Shown here: one piece after another, positions 27,757-52,309 of the stretch
How the letters are laid out: each line of letters starts with the position of its first letter
How positions within the stretch are numbered: the first letter of the stretch is position 1
Source of the DNA: an uncultured Gammaproteobacteria bacterium
Lineage (GTDB): Bacteria; Patescibacteriota; Patescibacteriia; Magasanikbacterales; UBA922
Reading direction: 5' to 3'
DNA length: 64,000 nucleotides
Assembly: GCA_964565405.1 (NCBI GenBank)
Contig: CAZMEW010000002.1
Location: 20,918 to 84,917 of the forward strand
Program-made: the position numbers and the translations under genes
The notes under the pieces: model-generated
Databases searched by the model: none
Told to the model about the DNA's origin: nothing
Seen by the model: only the letters and a program-made list of their open reading frames with translations

Positions 27757-27790
27757 CTCAAGCCTTACAGGGCTTGATTTTTTATTCTTT
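27757..27790 (+). terminator. rho-independent terminator
   Basis: CAAGCC(ttacagg)GCTTG hairpin followed by ATTTTTTATT. Confidence 0.55.
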
Positions 27791-27825
27791 ATAGTGTATA
27801 GTTGTCCAACAAAAGTCCCTGTAGG

Positions 27826-27900: not shown

Positions 27901-27931
27901 ACCGGGATTTTTCTTTTTTAAAAGTTTTTTT

Positions 27932-28972: not shown

Positions 28973-29219
28973 ATTGACAGGGAATACATAGATGATATAA
29001 TACAATTGTTCATTTAAAACTACAGTCATCCGTGAGGTGACCAGTTCGGACAATGAAGGGCCGGACAACTAACTGATTCATCAGTCTTTTTAAGACGCGA
29101 GGAAAAAGTGGTTGTTCGGCTTTTTTATTTTACAACCTCTTTGACCTTCTAATTAAGCGAGCTCGAATCAAGCTCGTTTTTTGTTAGCATGAATAAAGAG
29201 AGAAATAAAAAAATGCATA

Positions 29220-30557
29220 GTGAGAAAAATAAAATCATTGCTACACAAATTGCACAATTTTTGTTTTCTATTTGGGAAAAAGAACTATTACATAACGGCA
29301 ATCAAGCTGCCGCCTCAAAGTCAGGTTTTCCGAGAGATTATCCTGGCAATGGGACGGCAACTTGATAGTCGACCAAAATCTCTCGGTATGGTCGACACAA
29401 TACGTCTTAAAATAGAGTCTTTTAATGCCCTAGATATGGGCTATTTTAACGAAGTACGAAAAAGAAGCGCAACCGATGAGATGAGAAATATAACCAAACA
29501 AATAACACGTACGAATAATAAATTTAGAAAACATAGACAAGATAAGGGGCTATATACTCCTAAATTTCAGATTGAAGAAAATTACTATGGGACAATAATG
29601 AAGAAAACACTTGTATTGGAATTGTCCTTGCCAAAATTTGTTTTTGGAACAAATCTACATGAGCTTACTCAAGCGGATTGGCTTGATACAGTACAAAAAC
29701 TCCTCTTCTTTTTAAAAGAAATAAAAGTTGAAGTATTTGAACAAGATATTATGCAGGCAATTGTAACAAGTATATCTTATTCAAGAAATTTAGATATAAC
29801 TGAAATCTGTACTGGTCAGCAAGCAATACGTCATCTTGCGCCATTTAATTATCGTCCGAGGTCTGATTATAATTATGTAATTCGTGAGCAAAAAAATGGT
29901 GGATCATATATTAAATACTTCAATAATTGCACATCCCTGATAATTTACGATAAATTACCTGAAATTGCGTACAATCCGGTAACCGCGATTGAAAAGGAAA
30001 TTGCAGAAATATGGAAAAGGCGAAGGGCAGGAGAATTTCCACAACGTGTGAAGGAGTATATTAGAGTGGAGGTAAGTTTACAGGACAAGGTGTCAATTAA
30101 ACAGGCAGTTCGTTCGGTAAATGGTCTAATACAAAATTCATTTACATTTAAAGAACTTTTTAATCAAGAACTAAGTAATCAGATTCTTCGCAAAGAGATT
30201 GATAGCGTTTTTAATCATTCATTACAAAAACCTATTCTACTATCTACCTATGACAGACCAACTGTACAGGCTTTACTGACTAAAAAGTTTCCTAGATTTA
30301 ATGAACGAATGAAAGTCGCAGGTTTTGTTGAAAAGTTACGGATTGAAAATATGGGGTTAAAAGAGCTCCGTAAGACTATGATAGATGGTTCCTGTGAACG
30401 AACTTGGTTTCGTTGGCAGAAAAAACTTAAAGAGCTTTTCGACGACATAGAACTCCGAGATTTAAAAATTTCAGAAACTCTCAGATCGGCTGATATTTTG
30501 AACTTTATTTTGAAAGAATTTAATTTAAAAGATAAAAAACAGCTATCACTTTTCTAG
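29220..30557 (+). CDS. hypothetical protein, possible mobile-element replication-initiation protein
   Basis: GTG start at 29220 per the ORF track; the internal ATG at 29349 (MGRQLDSRPKSLGMVDTIRLKIESF) is the more likely start. No confident family match from sequence alone. Context is a recombinase-bearing island. Confidence 0.4.
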   Translation: MRKIKSLLHKLHNFCFLFGKKNYYITAIKLPPQSQVFREIILAMGRQLDSRPKSLGMVDTIRLKIESFNALDMGYFNEVRKRSATDEMRNITKQITRTNNKFRKHRQDKGLYTPKFQIEENYYGTIMKKTLVLELSLPKFVFGTNLHELTQADWLDTVQKLLFFLKEIKVEVFEQDIMQAIVTSISYSRNLDITEICTGQQAIRHLAPFNYRPRSDYNYVIREQKNGGSYIKYFNNCTSLIIYDKLPEIAYNPVTAIEKEIAEIWKRRRAGEFPQRVKEYIRVEVSLQDKVSIKQAVRSVNGLIQNSFTFKELFNQELSNQILRKEIDSVFNHSLQKPILLSTYDRPTVQALLTKKFPRFNERMKVAGFVEKLRIENMGLKELRKTMIDGSCERTWFRWQKKLKELFDDIELRDLKISETLRSADILNFILKEFNLKDKKQLSLF

Positions 30558-30558
30558 T

Positions 30559-32121
30559 TTAGTTTTCTTCCTTCAGATTTGCAAAATACTCTCTTGCTTT
30601 CAGATTTATATAGTAATCACAATAGAGTTTCATAGCTATAACCTCAGTTAGGGTTATAGGGTGACTTTTCTCATGTTTTACATCAGCTTGAAGTGCGGTA
30701 GCAAGAGTTAAAGTTTTATCTAAATCCTTCATTTCTCCAATTTTACTAAGTTGTTTTTTGATAACTTCTCTAAAATCACTTATACCATCCCAATCGCCAA
30801 AGATAATCGTAGCGTTTTTGAGAGCTTTGTAAAAACTGTCAAATGCATTTGCCTCAAGTTGTAAGTGTATGTCAACTTTGCTGAAACAAGTGAGCCCCAT
30901 AGCATACTCTTTCAAAAAACTCTCTAGTTTTTTAGATTCCATCATGAAAAACGTAATAATATCGTAGGTTTTTCTTGCCGCGTTTTGGTCAAGTACTAGT
31001 CTTGCTTCATCAAAACCCACATGCAATCGTTTATGAGGTGAAACGACCAATTTTACACCACCGTTTGGGTCAGCTTCAAGATCAACAATATCTACATAAT
31101 AAGTGGATATATCCTTCTGTACATTCCACCAAAAAATACCTAAAGTCCCAACATTAAATGCGAGCACCACTGTCTTTGCCATAAAGAAACCGTGCTCCCA
31201 TACATAACTAGTATGAAGACCTTTCGGTAACGTAAGATCGATAAGAAGCTCGCCTTTTGTGAGTTTATTAGGGTCTTTACGGTTAGACTTATAGATCTTT
31301 ATACCCTCAACACCTTTATTCCAATCGGCAAACGCGTTATTCCGGATCGTATGAGAGGGGGTTTGGATTCGGATACGCATTCTATATTTTGGTGCGAAGG
31401 CTTCTTCACCTTCTGGCTTTTCCCGTTGCATTTCTTTCTGGGCATATTCTCGCATCGCAATCTCATTTTGACGATAGACTTCATGTAACCATTTAATCCA
31501 TTCCTTACCGTTTCCAAGTTCACCTAGTTTTTTTAAAGATAAGGGACCAAATATCTGTTTACGATACTCAGTATCTTCTGCTGCAGAAAAAAACCATATA
31601 ATTTCCTCAATATCACCATTTTCAAATGGTTTCAATTCAGTTGTCTTCTCAATTTCAAGTCGCGTACGTGTCAATCCAATAATCATCCGTGCTTCATCTT
31701 CCTTAACTCGCTTATTTATTGGTAAGGGATTTTGAGGATCTGTATAAAGCGACTCAAGTCGTCGCTCATGCAGATTGAGTGCTAAATGACGAGTTTTTTC
31801 AATGATTTCTTTTGTGAATTTTACATCGCGTAATATGTCTGCACCCCATATCGCCCAAAAAAGTTTTTTAACATGATCATCCATCGCACCTACAAGCTCT
31901 TCTCTTTCGGGGCGCATAGCAAAGCTCATATAGTTGATTGTTGACAATATAGATTTACCAATTTCTTCTAGTGCTAAAAGAGCAAGATGGAAACAAATGT
32001 GGTCTGCATTTTTTCCAATCTCATTTTCGGCCATGGACAGGAGTGCTTCTGCATTTGCAAGACACATTTCTCGCATTATTTTAAGTTTTTCATATTTTTC
32101 TTCGTGTTTCATAAATTTCAT
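30559..32121 (-). CDS. AbiV/HEPN-like N-terminal domain fused to a large unknown C-terminal domain (candidate abortive-infection / defence protein)
   Basis: N-terminal NAEALLSMAENEIGKNADHICFHLALLALEEIGKSIL resembles the AbiV-type HEPN helix pair. Total length is about 520 aa, against about 200 aa for AbiV. Confidence 0.45.
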   Translation of the reverse strand: MKFMKHEEKYEKLKIMREMCLANAEALLSMAENEIGKNADHICFHLALLALEEIGKSILSTINYMSFAMRPEREELVGAMDDHVKKLFWAIWGADILRDVKFTKEIIEKTRHLALNLHERRLESLYTDPQNPLPINKRVKEDEARMIIGLTRTRLEIEKTTELKPFENGDIEEIIWFFSAAEDTEYRKQIFGPLSLKKLGELGNGKEWIKWLHEVYRQNEIAMREYAQKEMQREKPEGEEAFAPKYRMRIRIQTPSHTIRNNAFADWNKGVEGIKIYKSNRKDPNKLTKGELLIDLTLPKGLHTSYVWEHGFFMAKTVVLAFNVGTLGIFWWNVQKDISTYYVDIVDLEADPNGGVKLVVSPHKRLHVGFDEARLVLDQNAARKTYDIITFFMMESKKLESFLKEYAMGLTCFSKVDIHLQLEANAFDSFYKALKNATIIFGDWDGISDFREVIKKQLSKIGEMKDLDKTLTLATALQADVKHEKSHPITLTEVIAMKLYCDYYINLKAREYFANLKEEN

Positions 32122-32199
32122 CAAGATGTATAAATTGAAGTACACGAAATATAACAAAACTTGCTAAATTGAGCAAAAATGGTAGTATATTCATGTCTG

Positions 32200-32362
32200 C
32201 CTACAATTTCACCGAGAGTTTATTTTTTTAAAGGACTATTAAGACTGTCTTGTCTTATCCGTTTTATTGCGGATAAAGATGGGCAGTCAACCTCCACAAA
32301 ACGGAAAGTCCTTGGACTCTCTGTGAATAGTGGGCAGACCGGTTTGGCTGCCCTTTTTTGTT
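32200..32362 (+). ncRNA. candidate structured small RNA / leader ending in an intrinsic terminator
   Basis: Nested complementary segments (AAGGACT...AGTCCTT; CCGTTTT...AAAACGG) and a terminal GGGCAGACC(ggttt)GGCTGCCC hairpin followed by TTTTTT. No ORF is present. Confidence 0.25.
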
Positions 32363-32390
32363 TTTATATTTAATTCTTCACTTTTCCGAT

Positions 32391-33116
32391 ATGGATAAAC
32401 CACAAGCTAACCACTCGCCGAAGAAACCATTTTATAAAACATGGTGGTTCGGTGTTATCATTCTTGGATGTATCATAGTTTCATTCAGTTCAAACTCTTC
32501 TAACGATAACATTTCGACTCAGCCGCCCGTACACCAACCTAATACACCAGTTGAGCAGACTGTCGTACCCACCGTAACCGATAAAACCCCCGCTAAAACA
32601 ACAGTAACACCCGCAGCCAAGAAAGACGAGCCTGTTACCGATGTAACCGCCCAGACAACCCAAAATACAGACCCTCAAAACCAGACAGGTTCAAACGTCT
32701 ACGATCAGATACGAAAAAGAGCACAGGAGAAATGGCCGAACGACCCTGACATGCAAGAATACACGTACGATAATCAAAAGGCTGCATACGAACAATTTTC
32801 ACTGATTACCGCGTATCCCAATATCAAAGCTCAAGCGGTTTCGAAGTGGCCGACGGACTACGAAATGCAAGTCTATATGTATAATGAACAAAAAACGGCA
32901 TATGAGCGAATGGAGATGATCACCAAATACCCGGAAATAAAAACATATGCCCAAAACAAATGGCCAACTGATTACAGTATGCAGGTCTACACCTATGATA
33001 ATCAGGTTACCGCTTATGAAACTATGCTTAATTATCCCAACAGTCCTAAAAAATCTGCCGCTCAGCGCAAATGGCCAAAAGACTATGAGATGCAGGTGTA
33101 TGAATATCAAAATTAG
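32391..33116 (+). CDS. membrane-anchored protein with 3.5 tandem ~37-aa repeats (KWP.DY.MQVY.Y...AYE)
   Basis: TM segment WWFGVIILGCIIVSF, then a Thr/Pro-rich linker, then repeats KWPNDPDMQEYTYDNQKAAYEQ / KWPTDYEMQVYMYNEQKTAYER / KWPTDYSMQVYTYDNQVTAYET / KWPKDYEMQVYEYQN. Confidence 0.55.
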   Translation: MDKPQANHSPKKPFYKTWWFGVIILGCIIVSFSSNSSNDNISTQPPVHQPNTPVEQTVVPTVTDKTPAKTTVTPAAKKDEPVTDVTAQTTQNTDPQNQTGSNVYDQIRKRAQEKWPNDPDMQEYTYDNQKAAYEQFSLITAYPNIKAQAVSKWPTDYEMQVYMYNEQKTAYERMEMITKYPEIKTYAQNKWPTDYSMQVYTYDNQVTAYETMLNYPNSPKKSAAQRKWPKDYEMQVYEYQN

Positions 33117-33303
33117 CTATCTTTTTGATTAGGTAGCACCTCCTCTCGTTTACTCTCCAATTGTCCCGCTTCAAGCATCATCGCTACATCAATAGGTGCT
33201 CGTACTTCGTGAGTAGTTCTTCATACTCATATGAGCTAATTCTAGCCTTGACAACAAGGATTTTTTGTGTTATTATCTCATGTTCCAAAACAGAGGAGGA
33301 TTC

Positions 33304-34002
33304 ATGGAACAACGAGTGATGAAGTACACGGAATGGGTAGGTTATTTTGAGGGGTGGGCTCAGCTAAAACTCCGCGGCCAGACATCCGATTCTCCGGGCA
33401 TCATCCCTCGGTGGACTGAGACTCGTGAGATTCGGGTGATGTGGGAAGAGGGCATCACTGATGACACGGGCGAGTTCGTAGTTCGAGAAATCGCGCAATG
33501 GATTCGTGAGCTTTGTCTCGGTCTTGAGTTCACCGTGGTGCCGTATGGCACCGGATGGCGTGAAGCAGGACGGCGCGTCAGCGTCACCGACTACATCCGC
33601 CCCGCACTGCTTCCGAGCGGTGTCGACTATGAACAGCTTTTTCGGCTGTCGTACCATGAGCCGTATCGACGTGTGCACCAACACGCAGACGTCTACATCA
33701 TGAAACGACCGTTTCATGATGACACGGTTTCGTGGGGATGCTCGATCTTCGAGTACGGTTGTCTACTATTGACGCTTCACGGCGGTCGACAGAACAACCG
33801 GGATTTCTTGCGCGGCGTGGTACGCCATGAACTCGGCCATCTCTTCGGGATGCCGATTCACTGTGACCATGTCGGTGTCGAAGGATGGGCCTACGACTCA
33901 TCCTGCAACATGCACTACGCGGTACCGTCTTCCAGACTGTGTCCGAAGTGTCGCTCTCTCCTTCATCTCTGGTGGCAGCACATCAAAGCTGCTCTCCGAT
34001 GA
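33304..34002 (+). CDS. archaemetzincin-like zinc metalloprotease (peptidase M54-like) in a GC-rich patch
   Basis: HELGHLFGMPIHCDH followed by C...CPKC, the archaemetzincin HExxHxxGxxHC + Cys4 signature. Local GC is markedly above the flanks. Confidence 0.55.
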   Translation: MEQRVMKYTEWVGYFEGWAQLKLRGQTSDSPGIIPRWTETREIRVMWEEGITDDTGEFVVREIAQWIRELCLGLEFTVVPYGTGWREAGRRVSVTDYIRPALLPSGVDYEQLFRLSYHEPYRRVHQHADVYIMKRPFHDDTVSWGCSIFEYGCLLLTLHGGRQNNRDFLRGVVRHELGHLFGMPIHCDHVGVEGWAYDSSCNMHYAVPSSRLCPKCRSLLHLWWQHIKAALR

Positions 34003-34250
34003 AGATGACCCTGATGCGTCGTGCATCTGGCTGAACCCCTCGGGGCTCGCTACATCGCACGCGCATCGGGGGACAGTCAAAAATACATCACACCTGTGGT
34101 GTCTTTTTGTTTATAATTATAATGTACCCCCACTAAATAAGTATTTCTCCAATAAGTATGACAAAAGTGTCAGTAGTTTATAGTGGTTTTGGCTAAAATA
34201 CTTGATTTTTAATAGAGGTTAGAACATACTGAGATAAACATTCTTCACCT

Positions 34251-35849
34251 ATGTCTAAAGAAAAAATCTCTCAAGCAACACTATCTAGGGCAGCTGCATA
34301 TATTCGAGAGAGTACCGAGGAACAGGATAAGGGATACTCACCGGATAACCAAAAAGAGACTATTTTAAGGTATGCCAGACAAAATGGGATTGAGGTAGTA
34401 GAGTGGTACAAGGACCTATTTACTGGGCGTAGTGCAGAAAAAAGAATTGATTTTCAACGAATGATTGCAGACGCAATGATGAAGAAATTTGACGTTATTT
34501 TGATATTTCATAGCTCTCGATTTGCACGAAATGTAGAAGAGTCACAGCAGTATAAAAAGTTACTGCGTAATAAATTAGGAATTAATGTTGTTTCGGTAAC
34601 ACAAAATTTTGGTGACCCTGACGATCCCGGCTCCTTCCTTAATGAAGGAATAAACGAATTGTTTGATGAACATGTATCGAGGAATATCGGTTTCTGGGTT
34701 GGTACGAGTTTAATGGCAAAACGACAAAAGGGTTATCAATTAGGAAATCCACCGCTTGGGTATTACAAAAAGAAGATAGGGTATGATAAAGAAAGAGATC
34801 GGGTGATGTATGAAGGGGTGTGGCGTGTAGAAACAGACGAAGCAAAGCTCGTAAACCAGATTTTCAATTTGTATATCGGAGGAAACATGTCCTTTGCTGA
34901 TATAGCGGCAGAGTTAAATAAAAATGGTGGTAAAACAAAACATGGACATCCTTTCACCTATAGCTCAATTAAAGATACGTTAAATAATCGTTCATATCTT
35001 GGTTACACATATTCTCCCCGTAGAAACTACCCAGAATTACGAGCGAAACATAAGCCAATTATAACTGAAGAGTTATTTAATAAGGCACAGGAAGTGCTCA
35101 ACGACCGTAGACGTTCGAAGGGTCGTTCAACTGCAAAACATAGGTTCTATTTTTTGCAGAGTTTAGTGTTTTGTTACGGTTGCTATAAGCATTTGAAAGG
35201 AAAAGAAAATAATCCATCGGCCCGGCTTTTGCCAAAAATGTACTGTGTCACACAGCCTTCAGATGGTAAGGAGTACTACAGTTATGCCTGTAAATATCGT
35301 CGTGAGAATCATAGCTGTAAGCAGAAGAGTGTTAAATGCGAGACGATTGATGATGAGGTTAGTACGTATTTAGAAGGCTTTACACTGCCTAAAGATGTTA
35401 TCGAGGATACCATCTCACAGGTACGGGAGATGATTCAGTCTGCAAAAAAGACGCCTGATATGGTAGGGCGCATCAAACGCTTGGAAGAAAAGAAGAAGAA
35501 AATTGAATTTATATTCACTAATACGTCAGAATTGAGTGAGGAACAATACTTAGGTAAGTTAGAGGAGGTGAATATCGAATTAAATAAGTATTCTCAATTC
35601 GACCGGGTAGCAAGTAATGCACGGCGTGAAGAAGAATTCATTAAAAAAACCGAGCGTTTGCTCGGGGATTTCAAATCTCTGTGGGATACGTTTGATAAGG
35701 TTGAACGACGAAGGTGGGCAATGATGACGTTGAGGCGTGTGTGGGTAAAAGATGGAAAAGTCTATGCAATCGAACCGCAAGAGGAGTATAAGCCATTATT
35801 TGTTGCACATAGGGAAGTCTTGGGTCGAGCGGAATTGAACCCGTGCTAG
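34251..35849 (+). CDS. large serine recombinase (resolvase catalytic domain + recombinase domain + zinc ribbon + coiled-coil)
   Basis: N-terminal AAYIRESTEEQ with catalytic Ser, Cys cluster CYGCYKH...C..C, 532 aa. Confidence 0.85.
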   Translation: MSKEKISQATLSRAAAYIRESTEEQDKGYSPDNQKETILRYARQNGIEVVEWYKDLFTGRSAEKRIDFQRMIADAMMKKFDVILIFHSSRFARNVEESQQYKKLLRNKLGINVVSVTQNFGDPDDPGSFLNEGINELFDEHVSRNIGFWVGTSLMAKRQKGYQLGNPPLGYYKKKIGYDKERDRVMYEGVWRVETDEAKLVNQIFNLYIGGNMSFADIAAELNKNGGKTKHGHPFTYSSIKDTLNNRSYLGYTYSPRRNYPELRAKHKPIITEELFNKAQEVLNDRRRSKGRSTAKHRFYFLQSLVFCYGCYKHLKGKENNPSARLLPKMYCVTQPSDGKEYYSYACKYRRENHSCKQKSVKCETIDDEVSTYLEGFTLPKDVIEDTISQVREMIQSAKKTPDMVGRIKRLEEKKKKIEFIFTNTSELSEEQYLGKLEEVNIELNKYSQFDRVASNARREEEFIKKTERLLGDFKSLWDTFDKVERRRWAMMTLRRVWVKDGKVYAIEPQEEYKPLFVAHREVLGRAELNPC

Positions 35850-35895
35850 GAGAGCCACAATCTCCTGTGCTACCATTACACCATAGCCACCCCTA
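35830..35895 (-). pseudogene. truncated tRNA-His-like fragment (5' about 60 nt only), inverted relative to the intact tRNA-His, overlapping the recombinase 3' end
   Basis: The reverse complement reads G-GTGGCTATGGTGTAATGGTAGCACAGGAGATTGTGGCTCTCCTAGCACGGGTTCAATTCC and then diverges (GCTCGACCCA), so the T-stem 3' half and the acceptor 3' strand are missing. It is about 80% identical to tRNA-His at 27826. Confidence 0.55.
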
Positions 35896-36022
35896 AATTG
35901 ACCTCAAATCAAATTGTGGAGACGAGTATACGTCAAAATAAGGCTTTTGTCAACGACAAGTATAACACAACCCTGCACCATATAGTGCAGGGTTTGGATA
36001 AAATAGTAGAGATTTTTGCGTA

Positions 36023-36754
36023 TTAACCTTTCTTCTCGAATGATCGAAGAACTTCAAGTGGGACTGCAAATATTATTGTGTTGGATTGATCAGAGCTCAC
36101 GTCATTGATCGTACTCAATGTTCGAAGATGTAGAGCTCCAGGGCTACTAGAAAGCATTGCAGCGGCTTTGGAGATATTTTCTGCGGCTGCGATTTCTCCT
36201 TCTGCCTTGATAATGACAGCCCGTTTCTCACGCTCAGCTTCTGCCTGTTTTGCGATCACACGCTGCATGTCATCAGGGAGGGTAATATCTTTTAGTTCAA
36301 CGGTTTCAACCTTGATACCCCAGACATCGGTCGCGACATCGATCAGCTCTTTAATTTTTTTTGCAGCTTCCTCACGATTTGCTAAAAGCTGGTCAAGTTC
36401 AAGTTGTCCGACCACATTTCGCATGGTGGTCTGTGCAAGCTGGGAAACAGCAAACCAGAAATTTTCTACTTCAAGCACGGCTTTTGCAGCGTCGGCTACG
36501 CGGTAATAAATAACAGCATTAATTTTTGCAGACACATTATCCTTGGTTATTGCCTCTTGATAAGGCACATCCACTGCTTTGGTACGGATATCTACTTTCT
36601 GCATACTCTGGATAACCGGGAAAACAAGTCTCCACCCTGGTTCAACGATTTTCGTATACTTACCCAACTGAAATTTGACCCCACGTTGGTATTGGTTTAC
36701 CTGGCGAATACTGATAAACACAAGGAACACTGCGATCGCTATGAGTACCCACAT
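36023..36754 (-). CDS. SPFH/band-7 (stomatin/HflC-like) membrane protein
   Basis: N-terminal TM segment plus SPFH core (YQRGVKFQLGKY...) and a coiled-coil. Confidence 0.8.
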   Translation of the reverse strand: MWVLIAIAVFLVFISIRQVNQYQRGVKFQLGKYTKIVEPGWRLVFPVIQSMQKVDIRTKAVDVPYQEAITKDNVSAKINAVIYYRVADAAKAVLEVENFWFAVSQLAQTTMRNVVGQLELDQLLANREEAAKKIKELIDVATDVWGIKVETVELKDITLPDDMQRVIAKQAEAEREKRAVIIKAEGEIAAAENISKAAAMLSSSPGALHLRTLSTINDVSSDQSNTIIFAVPLEVLRSFEKKG

Positions 36755-39369: not shown

Positions 39370-39846
39370 ATGAAATATGATTTGGTTTTGATCTTGCCTA
39401 ATATCCGCTCCTGCCATAACGTAGGAGCTATGTTTCGGACAGCTGATGCCTGCGGATTTGGTAAGCTCTACCTCGTAGGATACACGCCAGTGCCACCGAG
39501 GAAAGAAATTGATAAAGTAGCCCTAGGTGCAGAGAAAAGCGTTGCCTGGGAGCAAAAACAAAGCTTAGGCAGGCTTATTCTTTCACTCAAAAGAAAGGGG
39601 TATACAATTGTTTCTTTGGAAAAGACAAACGAGAGTAAAGAATTGAATGTTCTCACCAAAAAGATACTTGGAGAAAAAATTGCACTCATCGTAGGGAATG
39701 AGGTTGACGGAATTGATAAAAAAACAATTGAAAAAAGTAATTACATCGTACACATTCCTATGCGAGGTGTAAAAGAAAGTCTCAATGTGTCTGTAGCGGC
39801 GGGTATTGCGATGTATACAATAAGTGACAAGGTGTATAGAGCATGA
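39370..39846 (+). CDS. SpoU/TrmH-family RNA 2'-O-methyltransferase
   Basis: LIVGNEVDGI...HIPMRGVKESLNVSVAAGIAMY, a SPOUT fold. Confidence 0.8.
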   Translation: MKYDLVLILPNIRSCHNVGAMFRTADACGFGKLYLVGYTPVPPRKEIDKVALGAEKSVAWEQKQSLGRLILSLKRKGYTIVSLEKTNESKELNVLTKKILGEKIALIVGNEVDGIDKKTIEKSNYIVHIPMRGVKESLNVSVAAGIAMYTISDKVYRA

Positions 39847-39930
39847 TACTAGGAGCTTGAAAAAAGCTCTTAATTTGTTATATTGTAAGTACTTAATCAC
39901 CAATTTTAGAGATATTGTAGATAAAAACCT

Positions 39931-40974
39931 ATGTCTGTAGATCCATCACTCCATTTTGTTCGTTCATTACCAGAAGGCACGGTAAATCGCAAAGAAGTGA
40001 GTATATCGATTAGAAGGATTTTGGAAGAAGCTGAAAGTTTGGGAATTATCTGGGAAATCATACCTGATACAGATATTGTTCGACTGAGCTATAAGGATAA
40101 GGTACAAGTCTTTAGAGCTGGTTTTCCAAACACCACGAGTTATAATGCGGCAGAGATTTGTTATGATAAGCAACTGTGCAAAAAGGTTCTCGAGAAAGCT
40201 GGATTAGAGGTTATGCCGGGATTTATGGTGTATGAAAAAGACTCAGAGGAGCGTATCAAATCCATGTGGGATACTCTACAAAAACCAGTAGTATTGAAAC
40301 CAGCAAAAGGTTCTCGTGGTAAGGGGGTGGTAATGGACATTACGGATTTTTCTCAATGTTTGAGTAATATTCATGAGTATTTTAAAGCACCTCTCTATGA
40401 AGGGGGTCTAATATTGGAGGAGATGTTTGTTGGAAAAGAATATCGAATCATGGCTACACCAGAAAAAACTTTGGCGGTATTAGAAAGAATTCCTGCACAT
40501 GTGATTGGTGACGGCGAGCATACGATTGAACAACTGATTGAAATCGAGAATAAAAATCCAATGCGCAACATTTCTCAAATAATTTACCCCCACATTGCAC
40601 TGAATAGTACTTCTCTTGAACTACTTAATAAACAAAAATTAACCAGAGCATCAGTACCCGAGAACGGGCAACATGTGGTACTTCAGAATATTTCTAATAT
40701 CATGGCCGGGGGGGTGGCGGTAGATAGAACTGATGAAGCACATGAGTCAGTCAAAAGAATCGCGGTAGAAGCGGTGCGCGCAATCCCAGGGCTCGGCTGG
40801 ACAGGTATTGATTTTATGACCAAAGATATCGAAGGACCACAATCAAAAGGCACCTACACAATTATTGAAATGAATTCTTCTCCTGAGTTCGATATGCACG
40901 ATATGCCTATGGAAGGAAAGCCCCGAGGAGTGACCAAAGAGTTTTTATTTACAATGTTTCCGGAGTTACGTTAA
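39931..40974 (+). CDS. ATP-grasp family ligase (RimK/cyanophycin-synthetase-like), paralog A
   Basis: VVLKPAKGSRGKGV and YTIIEMNSSPEF. Confidence 0.65.
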   Translation: MSVDPSLHFVRSLPEGTVNRKEVSISIRRILEEAESLGIIWEIIPDTDIVRLSYKDKVQVFRAGFPNTTSYNAAEICYDKQLCKKVLEKAGLEVMPGFMVYEKDSEERIKSMWDTLQKPVVLKPAKGSRGKGVVMDITDFSQCLSNIHEYFKAPLYEGGLILEEMFVGKEYRIMATPEKTLAVLERIPAHVIGDGEHTIEQLIEIENKNPMRNISQIIYPHIALNSTSLELLNKQKLTRASVPENGQHVVLQNISNIMAGGVAVDRTDEAHESVKRIAVEAVRAIPGLGWTGIDFMTKDIEGPQSKGTYTIIEMNSSPEFDMHDMPMEGKPRGVTKEFLFTMFPELR

Positions 40975-41008
40975 TAGAGATATACATAAAAACCGGCCAA
41001 GCCGGTTT

Positions 41009-41920
41009 TTATGATAAGTCCATAAATACGGCAGCCAATTTTTCTTTGAGGGTTTTGAAGACTGGGTGGTCAGCATTCGGCAGAAGTCCAAGTTCGGAGT
41101 TCATTTCTATGATTTTGTACCCCTGAGGAGTGGAAGCAAAATCAATGCCGTAAAATCTATGAGGGATGTGTGAAAAATGACGATCAATGGTTTTGGTAAT
41201 TTCAAAAATATCTCGAGGGAGTTTTTTCAATTCAACCATTGTAAACGTTCCACCCTGAGATACATTTGCGATCAGGCTCCCCTTTGGAGGAGTGCGAACA
41301 TACGAATAAAGAATTTCTCCATCAAATATTGCTACTCGCAAATCATGGGTTCCTTTGATAATGTTGGGGATCCCCTCTGAGCTATCAAGGAATTCAGATA
41401 CTACCGCAGGAAACATAAGCTTTCTTTCGTGTTTCTTAAAATATCTTTTTTCTTCGATCTTCACTCCAATGCCTTCAGCGCCAGCGTAGGGTTTGAAGAC
41501 TATATGCGTAGTGGTAATTTTGGGCAGAATAGAGTAGAGCTCTTGAGGGTTGGTAACAAAGAATGTTAATGGACAAAATTCAGAAAAATTCTGAAACATG
41601 AGCCATTTGTTATTGCAGATCAGGTTTAAGTGTGGAACATTGAAAACAGGGACGGTATTATCGGACACAAATAAACCTTTATCAAAAATTACCTCAGCTG
41701 TGATAGGCCCAGTCTCTTTAAGAGCACCGTCCTCAATAATCCATGATCGCGAAAAAGAACCGTTTCCTAAATATGTTTTTTGATCTCGTACAATATAGAA
41801 CTGTCCACCTTGAGTTGTGATCTCCTGTGATAATTCAGAATAAGCAGTCCAGTAATCACCTTTTGAAAAGGGCTCATCCATTGCTCCTGGGTGTCTGAAA
41901 AACACGGCAACTTTTTTCAT
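41009..41920 (-). CDS. ATP-grasp family ligase, paralog B
   Basis: IVFKPYAGAEGIGV and YKIIEMNSELG; start chosen at MKKVAVFF. Confidence 0.6.
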   Translation of the reverse strand: MKKVAVFFRHPGAMDEPFSKGDYWTAYSELSQEITTQGGQFYIVRDQKTYLGNGSFSRSWIIEDGALKETGPITAEVIFDKGLFVSDNTVPVFNVPHLNLICNNKWLMFQNFSEFCPLTFFVTNPQELYSILPKITTTHIVFKPYAGAEGIGVKIEEKRYFKKHERKLMFPAVVSEFLDSSEGIPNIIKGTHDLRVAIFDGEILYSYVRTPPKGSLIANVSQGGTFTMVELKKLPRDIFEITKTIDRHFSHIPHRFYGIDFASTPQGYKIIEMNSELGLLPNADHPVFKTLKEKLAAVFMDLS

Positions 41921-42020
41921 AGATTTTGTATTTATGAGAAGTGAGCCATATCTTATCATGTTTTTGCAAAAAATCAACCCATACCGTATAGTGTGAATTA
42001 TAAATAAATAAGTCTCAAAT

Positions 42021-42695
42021 ATGAATACTGTTGTATTTGATATTGAAACAATTCCGGTTGAATTTGATGGATTAGATTCCGAATGTCAGGAGTATCTGCT
42101 TAAATTTGCGAAAACTGATGAAGAAAAAGAAGATGTAAAGCAGCAAATGGCACTCTGGGCCCCTACGAATCAGATTGTCGCAATCGGAATGCTCTCAGTA
42201 GAGAGCGGGAAGGGGGCTGTGTATTTCCAGACTTCAAAAGAAGGCGTTGAATCGTATGAAAAAGATGGAATTAAGTACGAATGCGGGGGAGAAAAGGAAA
42301 TTCTTGAAAAATTCTGGAAGGCCATCTCGTTTTCACAGAAATTTGTGACTTTTAATGGTCGAGGATTTGATTGTCCAGTCCTCATGCTTCGCTCAGCAAT
42401 GGTTGGAGTAAAGCCGACTAAAAATCTTTCACCCTATCGCTACAGTACCGATGTACATGTGGATCTTCTTGAACAATTGACCTTCTATAACGCCTGCCGT
42501 AAATTCAATCTTGATTTTTATTGCAAAGCATTTGGTATTAAGTCCCCAAAATCAAATGGGGTAAATGGACATGAGGTATTACCCTTCTTCAGGGAAGGAA
42601 AATGTAAGGAAATTGCTGAATATTGCGCAGGGGATTTGCATGCGACGAAAGAGTTATATATACGATGGAAAGAGAACTTATCTTTTCAGCATTGA
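42021..42695 (+). CDS. DEDD-type 3'-5' exonuclease (RNase H-like fold, PolB-exonuclease-like)
   Basis: VFDIETIP (motif I), FNGRGFDCPVL (motif II), YCAGDLHAT (motif III, YxxxD). Confidence 0.65.
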   Translation: MNTVVFDIETIPVEFDGLDSECQEYLLKFAKTDEEKEDVKQQMALWAPTNQIVAIGMLSVESGKGAVYFQTSKEGVESYEKDGIKYECGGEKEILEKFWKAISFSQKFVTFNGRGFDCPVLMLRSAMVGVKPTKNLSPYRYSTDVHVDLLEQLTFYNACRKFNLDFYCKAFGIKSPKSNGVNGHEVLPFFREGKCKEIAEYCAGDLHATKELYIRWKENLSFQH

Positions 42696-42785
42696 TTATT
42701 TTGAATAGAAACGATCAACGAACAATGTGCAACAAGCGAATTTGAATTAAGGTCGTCGATCGTAGATTATTGTTCGTTGAGAAAT

Positions 42786-42820
42786 TCTTGATATGTGTTA
42801 CGTGATATGTGTTACGTGCT
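42786..42820 (+). repeat. tandem 14-bp direct repeat (ATATGTGTTACGTG x2) in the promoter region
   Basis: cttgATATGTGTTACGTGATATGTGTTACGTGctgtgcTATACT. Confidence 0.5.
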
Positions 42821-42839
42821 GTGCTATACTATCTCCACT

Positions 42840-43544
42840 ATGCAACCTATTGTCCAACACACACTATCAATCTACGAGACCATTCTCAATCGTCTCCCCC
42901 CATTAGTTCCTCAAAATATAAAACAAGCCCTGGAGGTGGAACTTGATCGTCTGTATAGAATAGAAGATCCTTCTCTTGGTGAAATTGAGCAATCTATGTC
43001 AGAGTATGGGATGAAAGTATGGCCGTATATTAAGGCGTTTGAAGAAATCATGGCATCCCATGAAGGACTTATTGCAGATAAGATTTTTATACAAAAAGCT
43101 TCTCTTCCGCTTCGCAAGAAGTATCTCTTGGTACGGGGACTCGGTGGGGGATTTCAATCAGTATATACTGGCTCTCTACGTGAACATTTTGACCATAATG
43201 AGAGGCGAGAGTTGAATGAACTTTTGGTAGACCTGAAACGTGATATTCGCCGCTATGCAATGCAGGCCGTATTGACCCATGATCGGAAAACATACGAAGA
43301 GAAAATCGAATATTATGGCCGTATGATCGAAGAAATTAATACCGTGGTCGGCTTGCTTCGTGAGATTGCCAAAGACCAGGGTGAAGATCATTATGATCTG
43401 GCGCTTGATGTACAGAGTAACATCAAAGCCATCGAACATAGCGTTGCATTTCTTGGTCCGATGATTAAGATAGAAGAAATCCGTCAGATGCCTGAATATT
43501 ATCACGGGAGGAGAGAAGAACGGAGAGTGCGGTGGGGAATATAA
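42840..43544 (+). CDS. hypothetical helical protein
   Basis: ORF with start chosen at MQPIVQH. No recognisable family. Confidence 0.5.
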   Translation: MQPIVQHTLSIYETILNRLPPLVPQNIKQALEVELDRLYRIEDPSLGEIEQSMSEYGMKVWPYIKAFEEIMASHEGLIADKIFIQKASLPLRKKYLLVRGLGGGFQSVYTGSLREHFDHNERRELNELLVDLKRDIRRYAMQAVLTHDRKTYEEKIEYYGRMIEEINTVVGLLREIAKDQGEDHYDLALDVQSNIKAIEHSVAFLGPMIKIEEIRQMPEYYHGRREERRVRWGI

Positions 43545-43562
43545 AACAAAAAAACCGGAGCG

Positions 43563-44861
43563 TTACTCCGGTTTTTTTGTTTCTGTTTCTATTTCAGTCA
43601 TCTGCTCGAGTCGTCTGATGTCTGCAAGAAGTTCTGATTTTTCTGGGTTGAAGAGAAGAATATTGAATACACTCGTGCCACCATGCTTGGCATACGTGCA
43701 CAAATCCCCGATTTTTTTGTTTACAATAATTTCTTTGAATGATTTGAGCTCCTGTGCCCGTTTCACTCCTGTTAACTTACTCAAGTACCCTTCTTTTTTT
43801 GCAAAAAATTTCATGTACACTGTATGTCCTTTGATTTTTCGTTTGATGTGTACCTGCTCTGGTATACGAATCAGAATATCATTGGCTGTATGGTTGATTC
43901 CGTATGAATATTCGTACATTTGTTGTCGGTAACCACCTACTCGAGCAGCAAGTTCAATAATTTTCCATCCAGCTTCAGTCTTCATAAGCTCAATATGTGC
44001 GGTAGTACTGCGAAGCGCGAGTGCTTTGATTGCTTGGCGTGCAACATCACGTGCGGCGGATGTACTTTCTTCATTGAGACCGGTTGGAGTCATCTGCTGA
44101 TATCCAAAAAAATCGTCAAATCCGATTGATCGTCCGGTTTTAATATGTACCATTGGAACAAAATATACTTTTCCTCTACCAGAAACGTAGGCATCGACTG
44201 AATACATGTCGCCATCCATGAATTGTTCGACGAGTACCTGTGGTTTCCAGTTACCGCCAGTCTCTTGATAGACTGAATTAATTTTTTTGAATACCTTTTT
44301 AAGACTCGCTTCGAGTTCTTCTTTGTGAAAACAGATAGTCACCAGCCTGCTTGCTGCGAGACCTGTTGGTTTTACCACGAGAGGGAATCCGACTTTTTGC
44401 TCGATTCGATCTAGGGAAGCTTTGGTCGTGTCAGTGACGATAGTATATTCAGGCGCGATTTTTTTGTTATAGGTATAGAGACGTCTCCGCATACTGAGTT
44501 TATCAGAGGCCCAGTGGAGTGATTCGGTGGTAGGAGTACGCAAATACGGTACAAAGGGGATAACTCGAGCAAACATTTCCATATAGTCTTCTCCGCGGCA
44601 AGAAATTGCGAGAAGTTGGTCTTCATAGGGTAGGAGAGTTTCCTGGATTGCTCTCTCTGAGAATGTGTCACAAGTCAGAGCGATATCAATACTTTTTAGT
44701 AATTCATCAGTCGGAGCGTGGCGTTTTTCTTTTGCATCATATAAAAGCGCAATTCGTAATTTGCGTTTGCTTTCTTTTTCATACGCACGAAGAGAAGTAA
44801 CCATGTATGGTTGGATTTTTCCCACGTAGAGTACGATATTCTGTTTATGTTTGGAAGACAT
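43563..44861 (-). CDS. ATP-grasp family ligase, paralog C (432 aa)
   Basis: FPLVVKPTGLAASRLV and KIIELAARVGG. Confidence 0.6.
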   Translation of the reverse strand: MSSKHKQNIVLYVGKIQPYMVTSLRAYEKESKRKLRIALLYDAKEKRHAPTDELLKSIDIALTCDTFSERAIQETLLPYEDQLLAISCRGEDYMEMFARVIPFVPYLRTPTTESLHWASDKLSMRRRLYTYNKKIAPEYTIVTDTTKASLDRIEQKVGFPLVVKPTGLAASRLVTICFHKEELEASLKKVFKKINSVYQETGGNWKPQVLVEQFMDGDMYSVDAYVSGRGKVYFVPMVHIKTGRSIGFDDFFGYQQMTPTGLNEESTSAARDVARQAIKALALRSTTAHIELMKTEAGWKIIELAARVGGYRQQMYEYSYGINHTANDILIRIPEQVHIKRKIKGHTVYMKFFAKKEGYLSKLTGVKRAQELKSFKEIIVNKKIGDLCTYAKHGGTSVFNILLFNPEKSELLADIRRLEQMTEIETETKKPE

Positions 44862-44928
44862 AGTCCAACATATATAAAATCAAAAAATGTTCGCTATTTT
44901 TATCATAAAATAGCGTTCTTGTCAAGTA

Positions 44929-49303: not shown

Positions 49304-52300
49304 ATGCCATATAATGCAAAAGACCAGGAACTAGAAGTACTGAAACATTGGGATAAGACCGATGCTTTTCGAAAATCTGTCGAAAATCGACCAGTAAAAA
49401 ATCGATATGCTTTTTATGATGGTCCTCCATTTGCAACTGGTCTACCGCACTATGGGCATATTGTAGCATCTGTCATGAAAGATGCGGTTCCACGCTACTG
49501 GACTATGCAAGGATATCGAGTTGAACGAGTCTGGGGATGGGATTGTCATGGACTTCCGATTGAAAATATTGTTGAAAAAGAACTTGGTACCAAAAGTAAA
49601 AAAGATATTGAGGAAATGGGGGTAGCTGAATTCAATGAGCGATGCCGTTCAAAAGTGTTGAGCTATGTAGGCGAGTGGGAGAAAACGATCACACGTCTCG
49701 GTCGCTGGGTAGATATGAAGAATGCGTATCGTACGATGGATAATGGCTACATGGAATCAGTGTGGGCTGTATTCAAACAACTCTGGGATAAAGATCTGAT
49801 TTATCATGGGTATAAACCGATGCACATTTGTCCTCGTTGTGAGACGACTTTGTCTCAACAAGAAGTTACTGAAGGATATAAAGATATCAAAGATATTTCA
49901 GTAACAGCAAAGTTTAAGGTGACAAATGCTAAAGAAAAATTAGGAATTGATGGTGATGTTTATATACTTGCGTGGACTACAACGCCGTGGACATTGCCGG
50001 GGAATGTGTTGTTAGCAGTCGGAAACGAAATCGATTATATTTCAGCAGAAACTTTGTTATTTAAGGGTGAAGACGAGACCTATATTGTGTCTAAACAGGC
50101 TTTGCAACATCATTTATTGAAAGGTGCTGATGAACAGGTTTTTAGTCAATTATTGGGGCTGGATGATCATCATTGGATTGTGGGTGCAAAAGAAAATCAT
50201 TCGGAAAGAGTGAGAGAATTTAAGGGAAAAGATTTAGTTGGCCTTACATACGAACCATTATTCCCATATTTTGCTGATAGTAAAAATTCTTTCCGTGTAG
50301 TTGCGGCAGATTTTGTAACGACTGAGGATGGAAGTGGTGTGGTACACCTTGCACCTGCGTTTGGTACGGATGATTACGAAGTATTCAAAAAAGAAAACGT
50401 ACCGTTTATTCAGCATGTAAAAATGGATGGAACATTTATTGACGCAGTCACGGATTTTGCAGGCATGCATGTGAAACCTGCAGAAGACCACATGGCAACT
50501 GATGTTGAAATCGTGAAGTGGCTCGCACACAATGGCAAACTTTTCTCAAAGAAAAAATACGAACACAGCTACCCCCATTGTTGGCGTTGTGATACTCCAC
50601 TCATCAATTATGCGACCAGTAGTTGGTTTGTAAATGTAACGAAAATAAAAGCAAAAGCTCTCAAGCAAGCAGAGAAGATTAATTGGTCGCCCGAGCATAT
50701 TAAGGAAGGTCGATTCGGTAAATGGCTGGAAGGTGCGCGTGACTGGTCTATTTCCCGACAGCGATTCTGGGCAACGGTTATTCCAGTCTGGCAGAACGCA
50801 GATGGTGATTCGATTTGTGTTGGTTCTCTTAAAGAACTCGAAGAATTGTCAGGACAGAAAATAGATGATCTGCATAAACATATTGTCGACAAAATTACAT
50901 TTGAAAAAGATGGAAAAACGTATACACGTGTTCCGGATGTACTCGATACGTGGTTCGATTCCGGCTCCATGCCGTATGCAGAGGTACATTATCCATTTGA
51001 AAATAAAGAAAAATTTGAGGATAGTTTCCCTGCAGAATTTATTGCAGAAGGTCAGGATCAGACGCGTGCATGGTTCTATTACTTACACGTACTTGCAGTG
51101 AGTCTTTTTGGAAAACCAGCGTATAAGAATGTAATCGTGAATGGAATTGTCTTGGCAGAAGACGGGAAAAAGATGAGTAAGAAATTGCAGAATTATCCTG
51201 ATCCAAATATCTTACTTGAAAAATACGGAGCAGATGCGCTTCGATATTATTTGCTGACGTCACCAGTGATGGCAGCAGAGAATCTCAATTTTGCTGAAGC
51301 GGGCGTGCGAGAAATGTATAACAAACTCGTAAATACGCTATGGAATGTGTGTGAGTTTTATGAGTTGTTTGCAGAAAAAGTCGAAAGTCGAAAGTCGAAA
51401 GTCGAAAGTAAACACATTTTGGATCGTTGGATTCTTTCCAAACTTAATATTTTGGTTAAGGAAGTTACTGGTGGAATGGAATCGTATAAATTAGCGGAAG
51501 CGAGTCGACCAATTGTGGAATTTGTTACTGAATTATCACAATGGTATGTACGCCGAAGTCGGGATCGATTTAAAAAAATAACGAATAACGAACAACGAAC
51601 AACGAACAAAAATACAGAAGATGATTTTTATGCAGCACTGTCTACATTACGATATGTTTTGTTAACCCTGTCAAAAGTGATGGCACCATTCACGCCGTTT
51701 ATCGCAGAAACGCTGTATCAAAAAGTGGGGGGAGTCATGGGAAGTGTGCACCTTGAAGATTTTCCCGTATATAATAAGAAGGAAGTAGATGAAAAAGTAT
51801 TGGAAGAGATGCAGAGTATTCGAAAAGTGGTAGAAATGGGTCTTGCACTTCGAGCACAATCTGGAATAAAAGTACGCCAGACTTTATCAACATTATATTT
51901 TAGTGGAGTTACTCTTTCTGACGCCGGGCAGGAAATTATTGCAGATGAGATGAATGTAAAATCGGTCGTACATAAGGTTCCTGAAGCGACTGAACGTGTG
52001 AGGGTTAAAGAAGAAAATGCGATAAAAGTAGGATTAGATATCGAAATAACAGATGAATTGAAAAAAGAAGGACTAGTCCGAGAAATAGTAAGAGCGGTGA
52101 ATCAGATGAGAAAAGAGCGGGGGTTAACCGTAGAAGATATGGTTACTCTGTACTGGCACACGGGGGATGAACAATTGCGAGAAGTGTTTGAGAATTATTC
52201 AAAAGAAATCGCAACTGGAGTATTGGCAGGGAGTATTGTAGAGCAAAAAAATGAGGGAAGTGTAGAAATTGAAGGAGTACAAATTTCACTAACTATTGAA

Positions 52301-52309
52301 AAGAAATAA
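49304..52309 (+). CDS. ileS: isoleucyl-tRNA synthetase
   Basis: HIGH-type motif PPFATGLPHYGH, KMSKS motif KMSKKLQN, editing domain, 1001 aa. Confidence 0.9.
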   Translation: MPYNAKDQELEVLKHWDKTDAFRKSVENRPVKNRYAFYDGPPFATGLPHYGHIVASVMKDAVPRYWTMQGYRVERVWGWDCHGLPIENIVEKELGTKSKKDIEEMGVAEFNERCRSKVLSYVGEWEKTITRLGRWVDMKNAYRTMDNGYMESVWAVFKQLWDKDLIYHGYKPMHICPRCETTLSQQEVTEGYKDIKDISVTAKFKVTNAKEKLGIDGDVYILAWTTTPWTLPGNVLLAVGNEIDYISAETLLFKGEDETYIVSKQALQHHLLKGADEQVFSQLLGLDDHHWIVGAKENHSERVREFKGKDLVGLTYEPLFPYFADSKNSFRVVAADFVTTEDGSGVVHLAPAFGTDDYEVFKKENVPFIQHVKMDGTFIDAVTDFAGMHVKPAEDHMATDVEIVKWLAHNGKLFSKKKYEHSYPHCWRCDTPLINYATSSWFVNVTKIKAKALKQAEKINWSPEHIKEGRFGKWLEGARDWSISRQRFWATVIPVWQNADGDSICVGSLKELEELSGQKIDDLHKHIVDKITFEKDGKTYTRVPDVLDTWFDSGSMPYAEVHYPFENKEKFEDSFPAEFIAEGQDQTRAWFYYLHVLAVSLFGKPAYKNVIVNGIVLAEDGKKMSKKLQNYPDPNILLEKYGADALRYYLLTSPVMAAENLNFAEAGVREMYNKLVNTLWNVCEFYELFAEKVESRKSKVESKHILDRWILSKLNILVKEVTGGMESYKLAEASRPIVEFVTELSQWYVRRSRDRFKKITNNEQRTTNKNTEDDFYAALSTLRYVLLTLSKVMAPFTPFIAETLYQKVGGVMGSVHLEDFPVYNKKEVDEKVLEEMQSIRKVVEMGLALRAQSGIKVRQTLSTLYFSGVTLSDAGQEIIADEMNVKSVVHKVPEATERVRVKEENAIKVGLDIEITDELKKEGLVREIVRAVNQMRKERGLTVEDMVTLYWHTGDEQLREVFENYSKEIATGVLAGSIVEQKNEGSVEIEGVQISLTIEKK
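51377..51409 (+). repeat. 7-bp tandem repeat (AAAGTCG x4.7) inside ileS
   Basis: aaagtcgaaagtcgaaagtcgaaagtcgaaagt, encoding KVESRKSKVESK. Confidence 0.8.
51581..51608 (+). repeat. 7-bp tandem repeat (ACGAAYA x4) inside ileS
   Basis: acgaataacgaacaacgaacaacgaaca, encoding TNNEQRTTNK. Confidence 0.8.

Follow-up and report, generated by a model that had tools for sequence, protein, structure and literature searches.

Our analysis concerns a cluster of three ATP-grasp ligase genes, here called A, B and C, at positions 39931 to 44861 of a 64,000-nucleotide stretch of DNA (positions 20,918 to 84,917 of contig CAZMEW010000002.1, assembly GCA_964565405.1, forward strand), which we call "the window" throughout. 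The genome is deposited as that of an uncultured gammaproteobacterium, and its GTDB lineage places it in the Magasanikbacterales of the Patescibacteriota, among the Candidate Phyla Radiation (CPR). The names of homologues put the window near Candidatus Magasanikbacteria. Two further genes, for a 3'-5' exonuclease (Exo) and a helical protein (H), lie between B and C. The five open reading frames (ORFs) reported here by an initial annotation, 39931-40974(+), 41009-41977(-), 42021-42695(+), 42795-43544(+) and 43563-44861(-), are all present, two of them with start codons that we have moved. The genes of the locus and its immediate flanks are the following (aa, amino acids; loci in other genomes are referred to by L numbers).

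39370..39846, plus strand: SpoU-family RNA methyltransferase (PF00588, E 3e-33), a backbone gene and the left edge of variable slot 1 (see below)
39931..40974, plus strand: A, ATP-grasp ligase, 347 aa, assigned to the CphA G-domain / GshF C-terminal clade
41009..41920, minus strand: B, ATP-grasp ligase, 303 aa, assigned to the GshB/RimK/LysX clade; as called mechanically, the ORF extends to a TTG at 41977
41921..42020, no strand: B/Exo divergent intergenic region, with predicted promoter-like sites
42021..42695, plus strand: Exo, PolB-exonuclease-like DEDDy 3'-5' exonuclease, 224 aa (PF10108, E 2e-24)
42789..42818, plus strand: 14-bp tandem repeat TGATATGTGTTACG, 2.1 copies, 100% match
42840..43544, plus strand: H, all-helical protein, 234 aa, a conserved family with no known domain
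43544..43582, no strand: predicted bidirectional intrinsic terminator at the convergent H/C junction
43563..44861, minus strand: C, L-amino-acid-ligase-type ATP-grasp enzyme, 432 aa
44929..45900, minus strand: PfkB-family sugar kinase (PF00294, E 2e-47), a backbone gene upstream of C

Gene B starts at ATG 41920 (MKKVAVFF) and encodes 303 aa, rather than starting at TTG 41977, since its homologues (n = 58) are mostly about 300-305 aa long and a recorded 303-aa protein (P0355) is identical to it from end to end. The helical protein, first given as 249 aa, is shortened to 234 aa with its start at ATG 42840, because its homologues align from residue 3-6 and that codon is closely preceded by a conserved TATACT box.

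All three ligases match ATP-grasp models, and the ATP- and Mg-binding residues are invariant within each of the three families, so all three are probably active enzymes. The initial annotation was right about the fold and wrong in calling the three genes paralogs: pairwise BLASTP comparisons are non-significant (best E 0.025-1.4, over segments of no more than 59 aa), and paralogy is rejected. Its GxxGxG and IIE(M/L)N motifs are found in A (GSRGKG 127-132 and IIEMN 311-315) and in B (GAEGIG and IIEMN), but C has VKPTGLAAS and IIELAAR at these places. The view that the ligases lie outside the housekeeping families is borne out. None of A, B and C reached the cut-off of the Ddl, PurK, PurD, PurT, CarB, RimK, GshB or CphA models, and the best housekeeping scores were far below them: Ddl 52 bits against a cut-off of 243 (A), PurD 31 against 288 (C), PurK 22 against 318 (A) and CarB 22 against 1027 (C). 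Judged by their sequences, A, B and C are new members of known ATP-grasp clades.

Ligase A is matched best by the CphA model TIGR02068 (E 1e-74, covering 152-473 of the 862 model positions, with 252 bits where the cut-off is 850) and then by the GshAB model NF002688 (E 3e-52, positions 430-755 of 756, 178 bits against 425), with N-acetylglutaminylglutamine synthetase also among its next best family matches after CphA. The corresponding matches in the PDB are CphA1 (7wac, E 5e-46) and GshAB (3ln7, E 6e-40). Its catalytic motifs are intact (K123, EEMF 163-166, D294, E313, N315), and no Mur-ligase Pfam domain was found in A or the neighbouring genes. These matches identify A as a putative stand-alone ligase of the cyanophycin-synthetase G-domain / GshF-like clade.

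Ligase B is more distant from characterized proteins at the sequence level; its best Pfam matches are PF02955 (GSH-S_ATP, E 2e-7) and PF08443 (RimK, E 9e-6), and a sequence search of the PDB with B gave no match. An AF2 model of B (pLDDT 95, pTM 0.91) has ArgX (3vpb) and GshB (1gsa) as its top fold matches in Foldseek (E 1e-14, TMq 0.70-0.72, with 0.72 for 1gsa), and superposes on 1gsa, 3vpb, 5k2m and 5zct, LysX and RimK included, with TMq 0.66-0.72. The graspetide cyclases PsnB and MdnC also match the fold but lie lower, at 0.56-0.60 against the 0.66-0.72 of GshB, ArgX and RimK. With the residues K143, HDLR 192-195, D260, E272 and N274 in place, B is modelled as a three-domain ATP-grasp ligase of the GshB/RimK/LysX structural clade. 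It remains below both families that it most resembles, with 43.8 bits against a cut-off of 143.4 for RimK (TIGR00768) and 36.5 against 272 for GshB (NF003573), and the Pfam scan reported no GSH-S_N domain (PF02951) in it. A RimK-like role in modifying ribosomal protein S6 was considered and rejected. E. coli RimK requires an S6 that ends in Glu, and the S6 encoded in the window (10017-10547) ends in ...QKDIDNV. This S6 is 176 aa long, the Pfam S6 domain (residues 3-90) being followed by a long Lys/Glu-rich extension.

Ligase C matches PF13535 (ATP-grasp_4; E 1e-19, 71 bits against a cut-off of 27), NF005543 (E 4e-26) and, weakly, PF18603 (LAL_C2; E 2e-4, 21.9 bits against 29.4), a domain that is recorded for many of its homologues. 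Its PDB matches are BL00235 and BacD, and a profile of the C family finds BacD with E 1e-12. The characteristic residues are K164, E212, H289/E291 and E303-x3-R307; IELAARVGG of C aligns to IESAARFAG of BacD, and the IIELAAR sequence is the normal form of the motif in L-amino-acid ligases (LALs) of the BacD kind and no defect. C is on this evidence a putative L-amino-acid-ligase (BacD-like) type enzyme. The family is large (at least 1480 homologues, with none of the top 120 below 56% identity). Two C-family genes stand side by side in L051, L062, L072, L111, L117 and L119, in tandem or, in L072, divergently, and a B-family gene lies beside or near the pair in L111, L117 and L119.

Three such ligases within 5 kb are indeed unusual, as the initial annotation held. 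A simulation that assumes 4-10 ATP-grasp genes among 700-1000 genes, and asks for three within five consecutive genes, gives P of about 1.5e-4 to 8e-3, so that chance alone is unlikely as the cause. Elsewhere in Magasanikbacteria the flanking genes form a conserved backbone, RpiB-Rpe-TrxB-(m102)-(PfkB)-C> <H-(Exo)-SpoU-DUF5667...integrase-Band_7-MGDG synthase, which has no A or B in L037, L039 and L040, nor in L126, where H is only 27% identical; Exo is gone from L037 and L039, with H and C still there. The SpoU synteny is kept in every Magasanikbacteria relative examined, and the position of PfkB beside C is also syntenic in relatives. Since relatives carry this backbone without A or B, these two genes occupy a variable slot, produced by insertion or loss. 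The contents of this slot 1 (SpoU to Exo/H) and of a second slot (slot 2, H to C) are as follows.

Window: slot 1, A + B; slot 2, empty
L005: slot 1, A + B; slot 2, contig ends
L006: slot 1, A only; slot 2, 267-aa protein (k17)
L041 (C 95% identical): slot 1, one B; slot 2, stand-alone MATCAP peptidase
L042: slot 1, two B paralogs; slot 2, 267-aa protein (k17)
L040: slot 1, empty; slot 2, empty
L037: slot 1, unrelated 101-aa ORF; slot 2, empty
L126: slot 1, unrelated 336-aa ORF; slot 2, empty

Three more A+B pairs appear to be present on short Logan contigs. Thus, in the window's sub-lineage, A and B sit in a plastic slot with genome-dependent cargo next to a resident C, and this is how three ligases come to lie within 5 kb. 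Two other slot proteins were considered as disguised ligases and dismissed: the 336-aa slot-1 ORF of L126 has no similarity to A or B, with the family HMMs included in the comparison, and the 267-aa protein (p267) of L001/L006, tried as a relocated B, is unrelated to it and belongs to a separate C-associated family, k17. Members of this family, about 250-267 aa long, were found in L006 (12733-13536), L042 (7529-8332), L050, L078, L080, L087, L108, L121 and L122. They immediately adjoin a C-family ligase in every case, in the arrangements C>k17> and k17<C>, and have no Pfam, NCBIfam or PDB match; their conserved motif SHGxDRNPYG...FKLSVG may bear a faint resemblance to Fem/GNAT-type transferases.

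The neighbourhoods of the three families in other genomes were compared from the side of each. On the C side, metagenome contigs were scanned with the C-family profile, which gave 80 loci with 46-60% identity; neighbours were clustered over 87 loci, and clusters at 60% identity were taken as C lineages (n = 28). A B-family gene lies within a few genes of C in 18 of the 87 loci and within three genes in 10 of the 28 lineages, in at least eight arrangements (C>B>, B<C>, C>B<, B>C>, B>B<C>, B>k17<C>, C>C>B> and B>x>C>C>). By the same measure Exo (within three genes), H (within two genes) and k17 are near C in 2, 3 and 3 of the 28 lineages, respectively; counted by loci, 20 of the 87 have Exo in the vicinity of C, in the two arrangements C>H<Exo< and C>k5>Exo>. 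A MATCAP gene adjoins C in L041, L094 and L122.

The A side leads to a different set of partners. In Pseudomonas the rloABC genes encode a retropepsin (RloA), a seven-transmembrane (7TM) protein with an inactive transglutaminase part (RloB) and an ATP-grasp protein (RloC) (mBio 2025, PMC12239564). Among 32 A-family loci from species-representative genomes, 17 contain both an RloB-like 7TM gene (PF14402; NF052267) and an RloC-like ATPgrasp_ST gene (PF14397; TIGR02291, E 3e-88), and in an eighteenth the RloC-like match is only partial, at a contig end. The RloC-like ligase has a C-terminal retropepsin-like domain (PF05618, RloA/RimB-like), or else a MATCAP domain (PF08014) fused or adjacent to it. 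This linkage of A with Rlo-like genes is found in at least four arrangements, in Magasanik-, Woese-, Doudna- and Moranbacteria. The B family enters the same surroundings: it stands beside A in six of the A-family loci; A and B neighbour each other in close relatives and in three distant CPR groups; a B homologue that is 49% identical adjoins MATCAP, RloC-like and RloB-like genes in L123; and in L125 the order is RuvC>RloB>RloC-retropepsin>B>B>B>...PBP1a, with B in the place that A has in Moranbacteria, whose Rlo-like loci sit between ruvC and a PBP1a gene. We located CPR Rlo-like loci in L007/L008 (5044-11053), L009-L011, L020 (4795-10990), L022-L036, L123 and L125. Each has, in addition, between one and three ATP-grasp genes that belong to the A or B family, and their RloB-like proteins often have PKD domains.

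We favour the reading, at a probability of about 0.5, that A, B and C are three different ligases of one CPR contextual network, with C as its conserved member and A and B as accessory extenders that can be exchanged, the three together building a short peptide stepwise, with Exo and H as bystanders. Each ligase would use ATP to convert a carboxylate to an acyl-phosphate, which would then be coupled to an amino group. C might join free amino acids into a dipeptide-like starter, B might add one or more residues onto a C-terminal or side-chain carboxylate, and A might add a further residue or oligomerize the product, which could be a short peptide, or a peptide tail, made without ribosomes and possibly associated with the envelope. 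The suggestion of a shared role in amino-acid or peptide ligation, made when the cluster was first described, is plausible in view of the presence of B near C in 10 of 28 C lineages and of the A-B pairs in relatives. The network reading is further supported by a neighbour-joining tree in which C-adjacent and Rlo-adjacent B proteins are intermixed, by the links of A- and B-family genes with RloB-like and RloC-like genes, and by the MATCAP genes beside C. Several observations weigh against this reading. The three genes do not form an operon, since they lie on different strands and have promoter-like sites and terminators of their own. Slot 1 also houses unrelated cargo (the 336-aa ORF of L126 and the 101-aa ORF of L037), so hotspot insertion alone could explain the position of A and B. 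In L006 A is kept with no B nearby, and C is alone in many genomes; outside the window's own lineage no A-family gene adjoins C, weak phmmer matches in L061 and L072 aside. Searching the 64-kb window by tblastn with CPR RloB-like and RloC-MATCAP proteins revealed no RloB-like, RloC-like or MATCAP gene. The neighbour-joining tree of the B proteins has no support values. (The sole tblastn match in that search, a weak one to a pilin-like CarboxypepD_reg protein at 11479-13251, was set aside as spurious.)

Coincidence at a recombination-prone hotspot would account for the cluster differently: the ligases would be independent, and the junction between SpoU and Exo/H would simply be one that accepts foreign genes readily. 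We regard this, the main rival, as possible and yet somewhat doubtful. It agrees with a slot-1 cargo that is non-homologous across genomes (A+B, A, B, B+B, nothing, a 101-aa ORF or a 336-aa ORF), with ligase genes that are monocistronic and on different strands, with the fact that most C loci have no other ligase nearby, and with a second lineage-specific insertion in the same window at 26-36 kb. It does not explain why B and C are adjacent in 10 of 28 C lineages, some of them without the Magasanikbacteria backbone and its slot, and in such arrangements as C>B>, B<C>, B>C> and C>C>B>, nor why A-B adjacency recurs in distant CPR classes and MATCAP, a partner of the RloC-like ligases, is also found beside C. 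A concerted role might, on the other hand, extend to all five genes, with Exo and H acting together with the ligases, perhaps in a peptide-modification system that is regulated or linked to nucleic acid. The presence of Exo near C in two arrangements and an H-C adjacency that holds down to 27% H identity are what such a unit might produce, but the lineage counts (2 of 28 and 3 of 28) are those expected of inherited synteny, Exo is lost in L037 and L039 while H and C stay, H and C converge on a terminator with a 17-bp stem, H has a conserved predicted promoter of its own, and both Exo and H are absent from the Rlo-type A and B loci. The five-gene unit entertained by the initial annotation is therefore improbable.

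Two further proposals concern the product or role. One, a variant of the favoured reading, is a glutathione-like low-molecular-weight thiol or similar tripeptide, in which C would replace GshA, and B and/or A would perform the second step. The best full-length matches of A after CphA are indeed to the ATP-grasp half of GshAB (NF002688 and 3ln7, with the E values given above), GSH-S_ATP is the best Pfam match of B and E. coli GshB its top fold match (TMq 0.72), and C has redox genes beside it in two lineages (TrxB in that of the Magasanikbacteria backbone, a DsbA-like gene in the other). We nevertheless think this attractive identification improbable as well, if by a hair less so than the five-gene unit: the scores are far under the family cut-offs (for GshB by the margin already given), B lacks a detectable GSH-S_N domain, ArgX/LysX and RimK fit its fold equally well, and the TrxB and DsbA adjacencies are lineage synteny and may be irrelevant. 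The least credible proposal is a RiPP of the graspetide kind or a classic housekeeping role (Ddl, PurK/PurD, CarB, RimK-S6 or cyanophycin). Graspetide clusters are known in CPR (PMC8939145), PsnB and MdnC are among the fold matches of B, and A strongly resembles the CphA G domain. But the graspetide cyclases fit B less well than the other relatives do, and the search for a precursor-peptide ORF proposed earlier gave nothing that fits the intergenic gaps of 18-144 nt, where a single ORF with an ATG start has most of its length outside the genes and is 20 aa long; as for housekeeping, all of its models are far under their cut-offs, A has no CphA N or M domain, and the S6 of the window is not Glu-ended.

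More tentatively, and with some doubt on our part, the network might be part of a modular multi-ligase peptide-assembly system of CPR, with C as the starter enzyme, stackable B and A extenders, a trimming peptidase (a retropepsin or a metallocarboxypeptidase of the MATCAP type) and often an RloB-like 7TM/PKD protein. Such a system would add and remove residues on a short peptide or C-terminal tail at the envelope, and the window would hold a three-ligase variant of it. CPR bacteria have minimal biosynthetic capacity, and the retention at one place of up to three different ATP-dependent peptide ligases implies that some peptide product matters to them.

Exo and H deserve separate comment. Exo matches PF10108 with 87 bits against a cut-off of 24, and its motifs FDIET (D7, E9), FNGRGFD (D117) and YCAGD (Y201, D205) are intact; the first description as a DnaQ-like DEDD exonuclease is correct as to the DEDDy type, but the protein is PolB-exonuclease-like (PF10108) and not of the DnaQ family proper. 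It is probably a backbone neighbour outside the ligase set, and neither it nor H was found in the Rlo-type A or B loci. The H family has 121 representative homologues and no Pfam or NCBIfam match. Its AF2 model (pLDDT 92, pTM 0.84) has nine helices and no PDB neighbour by Foldseek (best E 0.96, TM < 0.25) or by profile search. H is a backbone partner of C within Magasanikbacteria only. Both genes probably follow C by inherited synteny alone, as bystanders that are independently transcribed; their inclusion with the ligases in one unit was contradicted by the lineage counts given above, by the promoter-like sites that each has of its own and by the predicted terminator between H and C. The transcription signals, which are predictions from consensus scans only, are the following.

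39857..39884, plus strand: predicted A promoter-like site, TTGAAA-16-TATATT with TG
42025-41997, minus strand: predicted B promoter-like site
41964-41992, plus strand: predicted Exo promoter-like site
42802..42830, plus strand: predicted H promoter, GTGATA-17-TATACT with TG
44896..44925, minus strand: predicted C promoter-like site, TTGACA-18-AAAAAT

A terminator-like hairpin downstream of SpoU (39850-39872) overlaps the A promoter-like site, and another downstream of PfkB (44892-44915) lies next to that of C. The predicted terminator between H and C has a 17-bp stem with A7 and T7 flanks and overlaps the last codons of C. The tandem repeat noted ahead of the helical protein, at most a putative operator, is real (42789-42818) and is one of only five arrays that score at least 50 in the 64 kb; its second copy supplies the -35-like GTGATA of the predicted H promoter, and the repeat is absent at the same position in 13 relatives. 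Of 14 H loci compared, most have a TATACT/TATAAT-type box ahead of the ATG, usually no more than about 12 nt away. The predicted -10 box in the window ends 9 nt before the ATG, which implies a nearly leaderless H transcript.

Other parts of the window show features of their own. The second insertion mentioned above is about 9.7 kb long (26300-36000), is specific to this lineage and separates the genes for MGDG synthase (25091-26251) and Band_7 (36023-36754), which are adjacent in relatives. Its GC content falls to 0.34-0.36, and it contains tRNA-His (27826-27901), an HATPase_c-like ORF, several unannotated ORFs, an AbiV-type HEPN protein (30559-32157) and a large serine recombinase (34251-35849), with a weak tRNA-like match at 35821-35890; it is probably an integrated mobile element or defence island. 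An isoleucyl-tRNA synthetase-like ORF (49304-52309) contains two 7-bp tandem arrays, AAAGTCG (4.7 copies, 100% match, 51377-51409) and AACGAAC (4.3 copies, 51580-51609), whose period is not divisible by three, an uncommon thing in coding sequence. The regions 8038-9753 and 11479-21041 encode a type IV pilus ATPase and a pilin-like protein with an N-terminal methylation motif, together with several large ORFs that end in T4SS_pilin domains (16238-16945, 18412-19770 and 19797-21041); at the syntenic position, relatives have small T4SS_pilin genes in arrays.

Each of the three ligases differs from its closest known counterparts. Like the G domain of CphA1/CphA2 and the ATP-grasp half of GshAB (GshF), A aligns over its full length and keeps the ATP- and Mg-binding residues; CphA and GshF extend a peptide by an amino acid at its C-terminal carboxylate. 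Unlike CphA, A is only 347 aa long and lacks both the N domain and the MurE-like M domain, and unlike GshAB it has no N-terminal glutamate-cysteine ligase (GshA) domain; its relatives are paired with RloB-like and RloC-like genes and not with cyanophycinase. B shares with GshB, RimK and LysX-ArgX the fold and a catalytic constellation of K, R, R, D, E and N, but is only 14-18% identical to them, and no LysW-like carrier gene was seen. C has in common with BacD/YwfE and BL00235 the ATP-grasp_4 core, a weak LAL_C2 and the E-x-A-A-R motif; the similarity to BacD/YwfE is remote (profile E about 1e-12), and C is a strongly conserved gene of the Magasanikbacteria backbone and not part of an antibiotic gene cluster. 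Being small and soluble, A, B and C should be tractable for substrate screening in vitro.

The comparative data also tie the three ligase clades to the Rlo system, which in Pseudomonas gives strong envelope, antibiotic-tolerance and biofilm phenotypes and whose biochemistry is unsolved (PMC12239564). If the multi-ligase system proposed above is real, it would offer a biochemical handle on the Pseudomonas Rlo product, and would be a bacterial counterpart to the kind of ligase/carboxypeptidase cycle seen in tubulin tyrosination. In the literature that we searched no Rlo-like system is described in CPR, nor the association there of LAL-, GshB/RimK- and CphA-G-type ligases with MATCAP or retropepsin peptidases and RloB-like proteins, and searches for MATCAP with ATP-grasp, for LAL with Patescibacteria and for CphA G-domain homologues returned nothing. 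Since RloB has been reported to be 96% proteobacterial (PMC12239564), the CPR loci widen both the distribution and the architecture of Rlo. As in Pseudomonas rloABC, the partners of the A and B families in other CPR genomes are RloB-like genes and retropepsin-bearing RloC-like genes; unlike the Pseudomonas genes, the CPR loci fuse the peptidase to RloC or replace it by MATCAP, often have PKD domains in place of the transglutaminase-like part of RloB, and add one to three ATP-grasp ligases of the A and/or B family.

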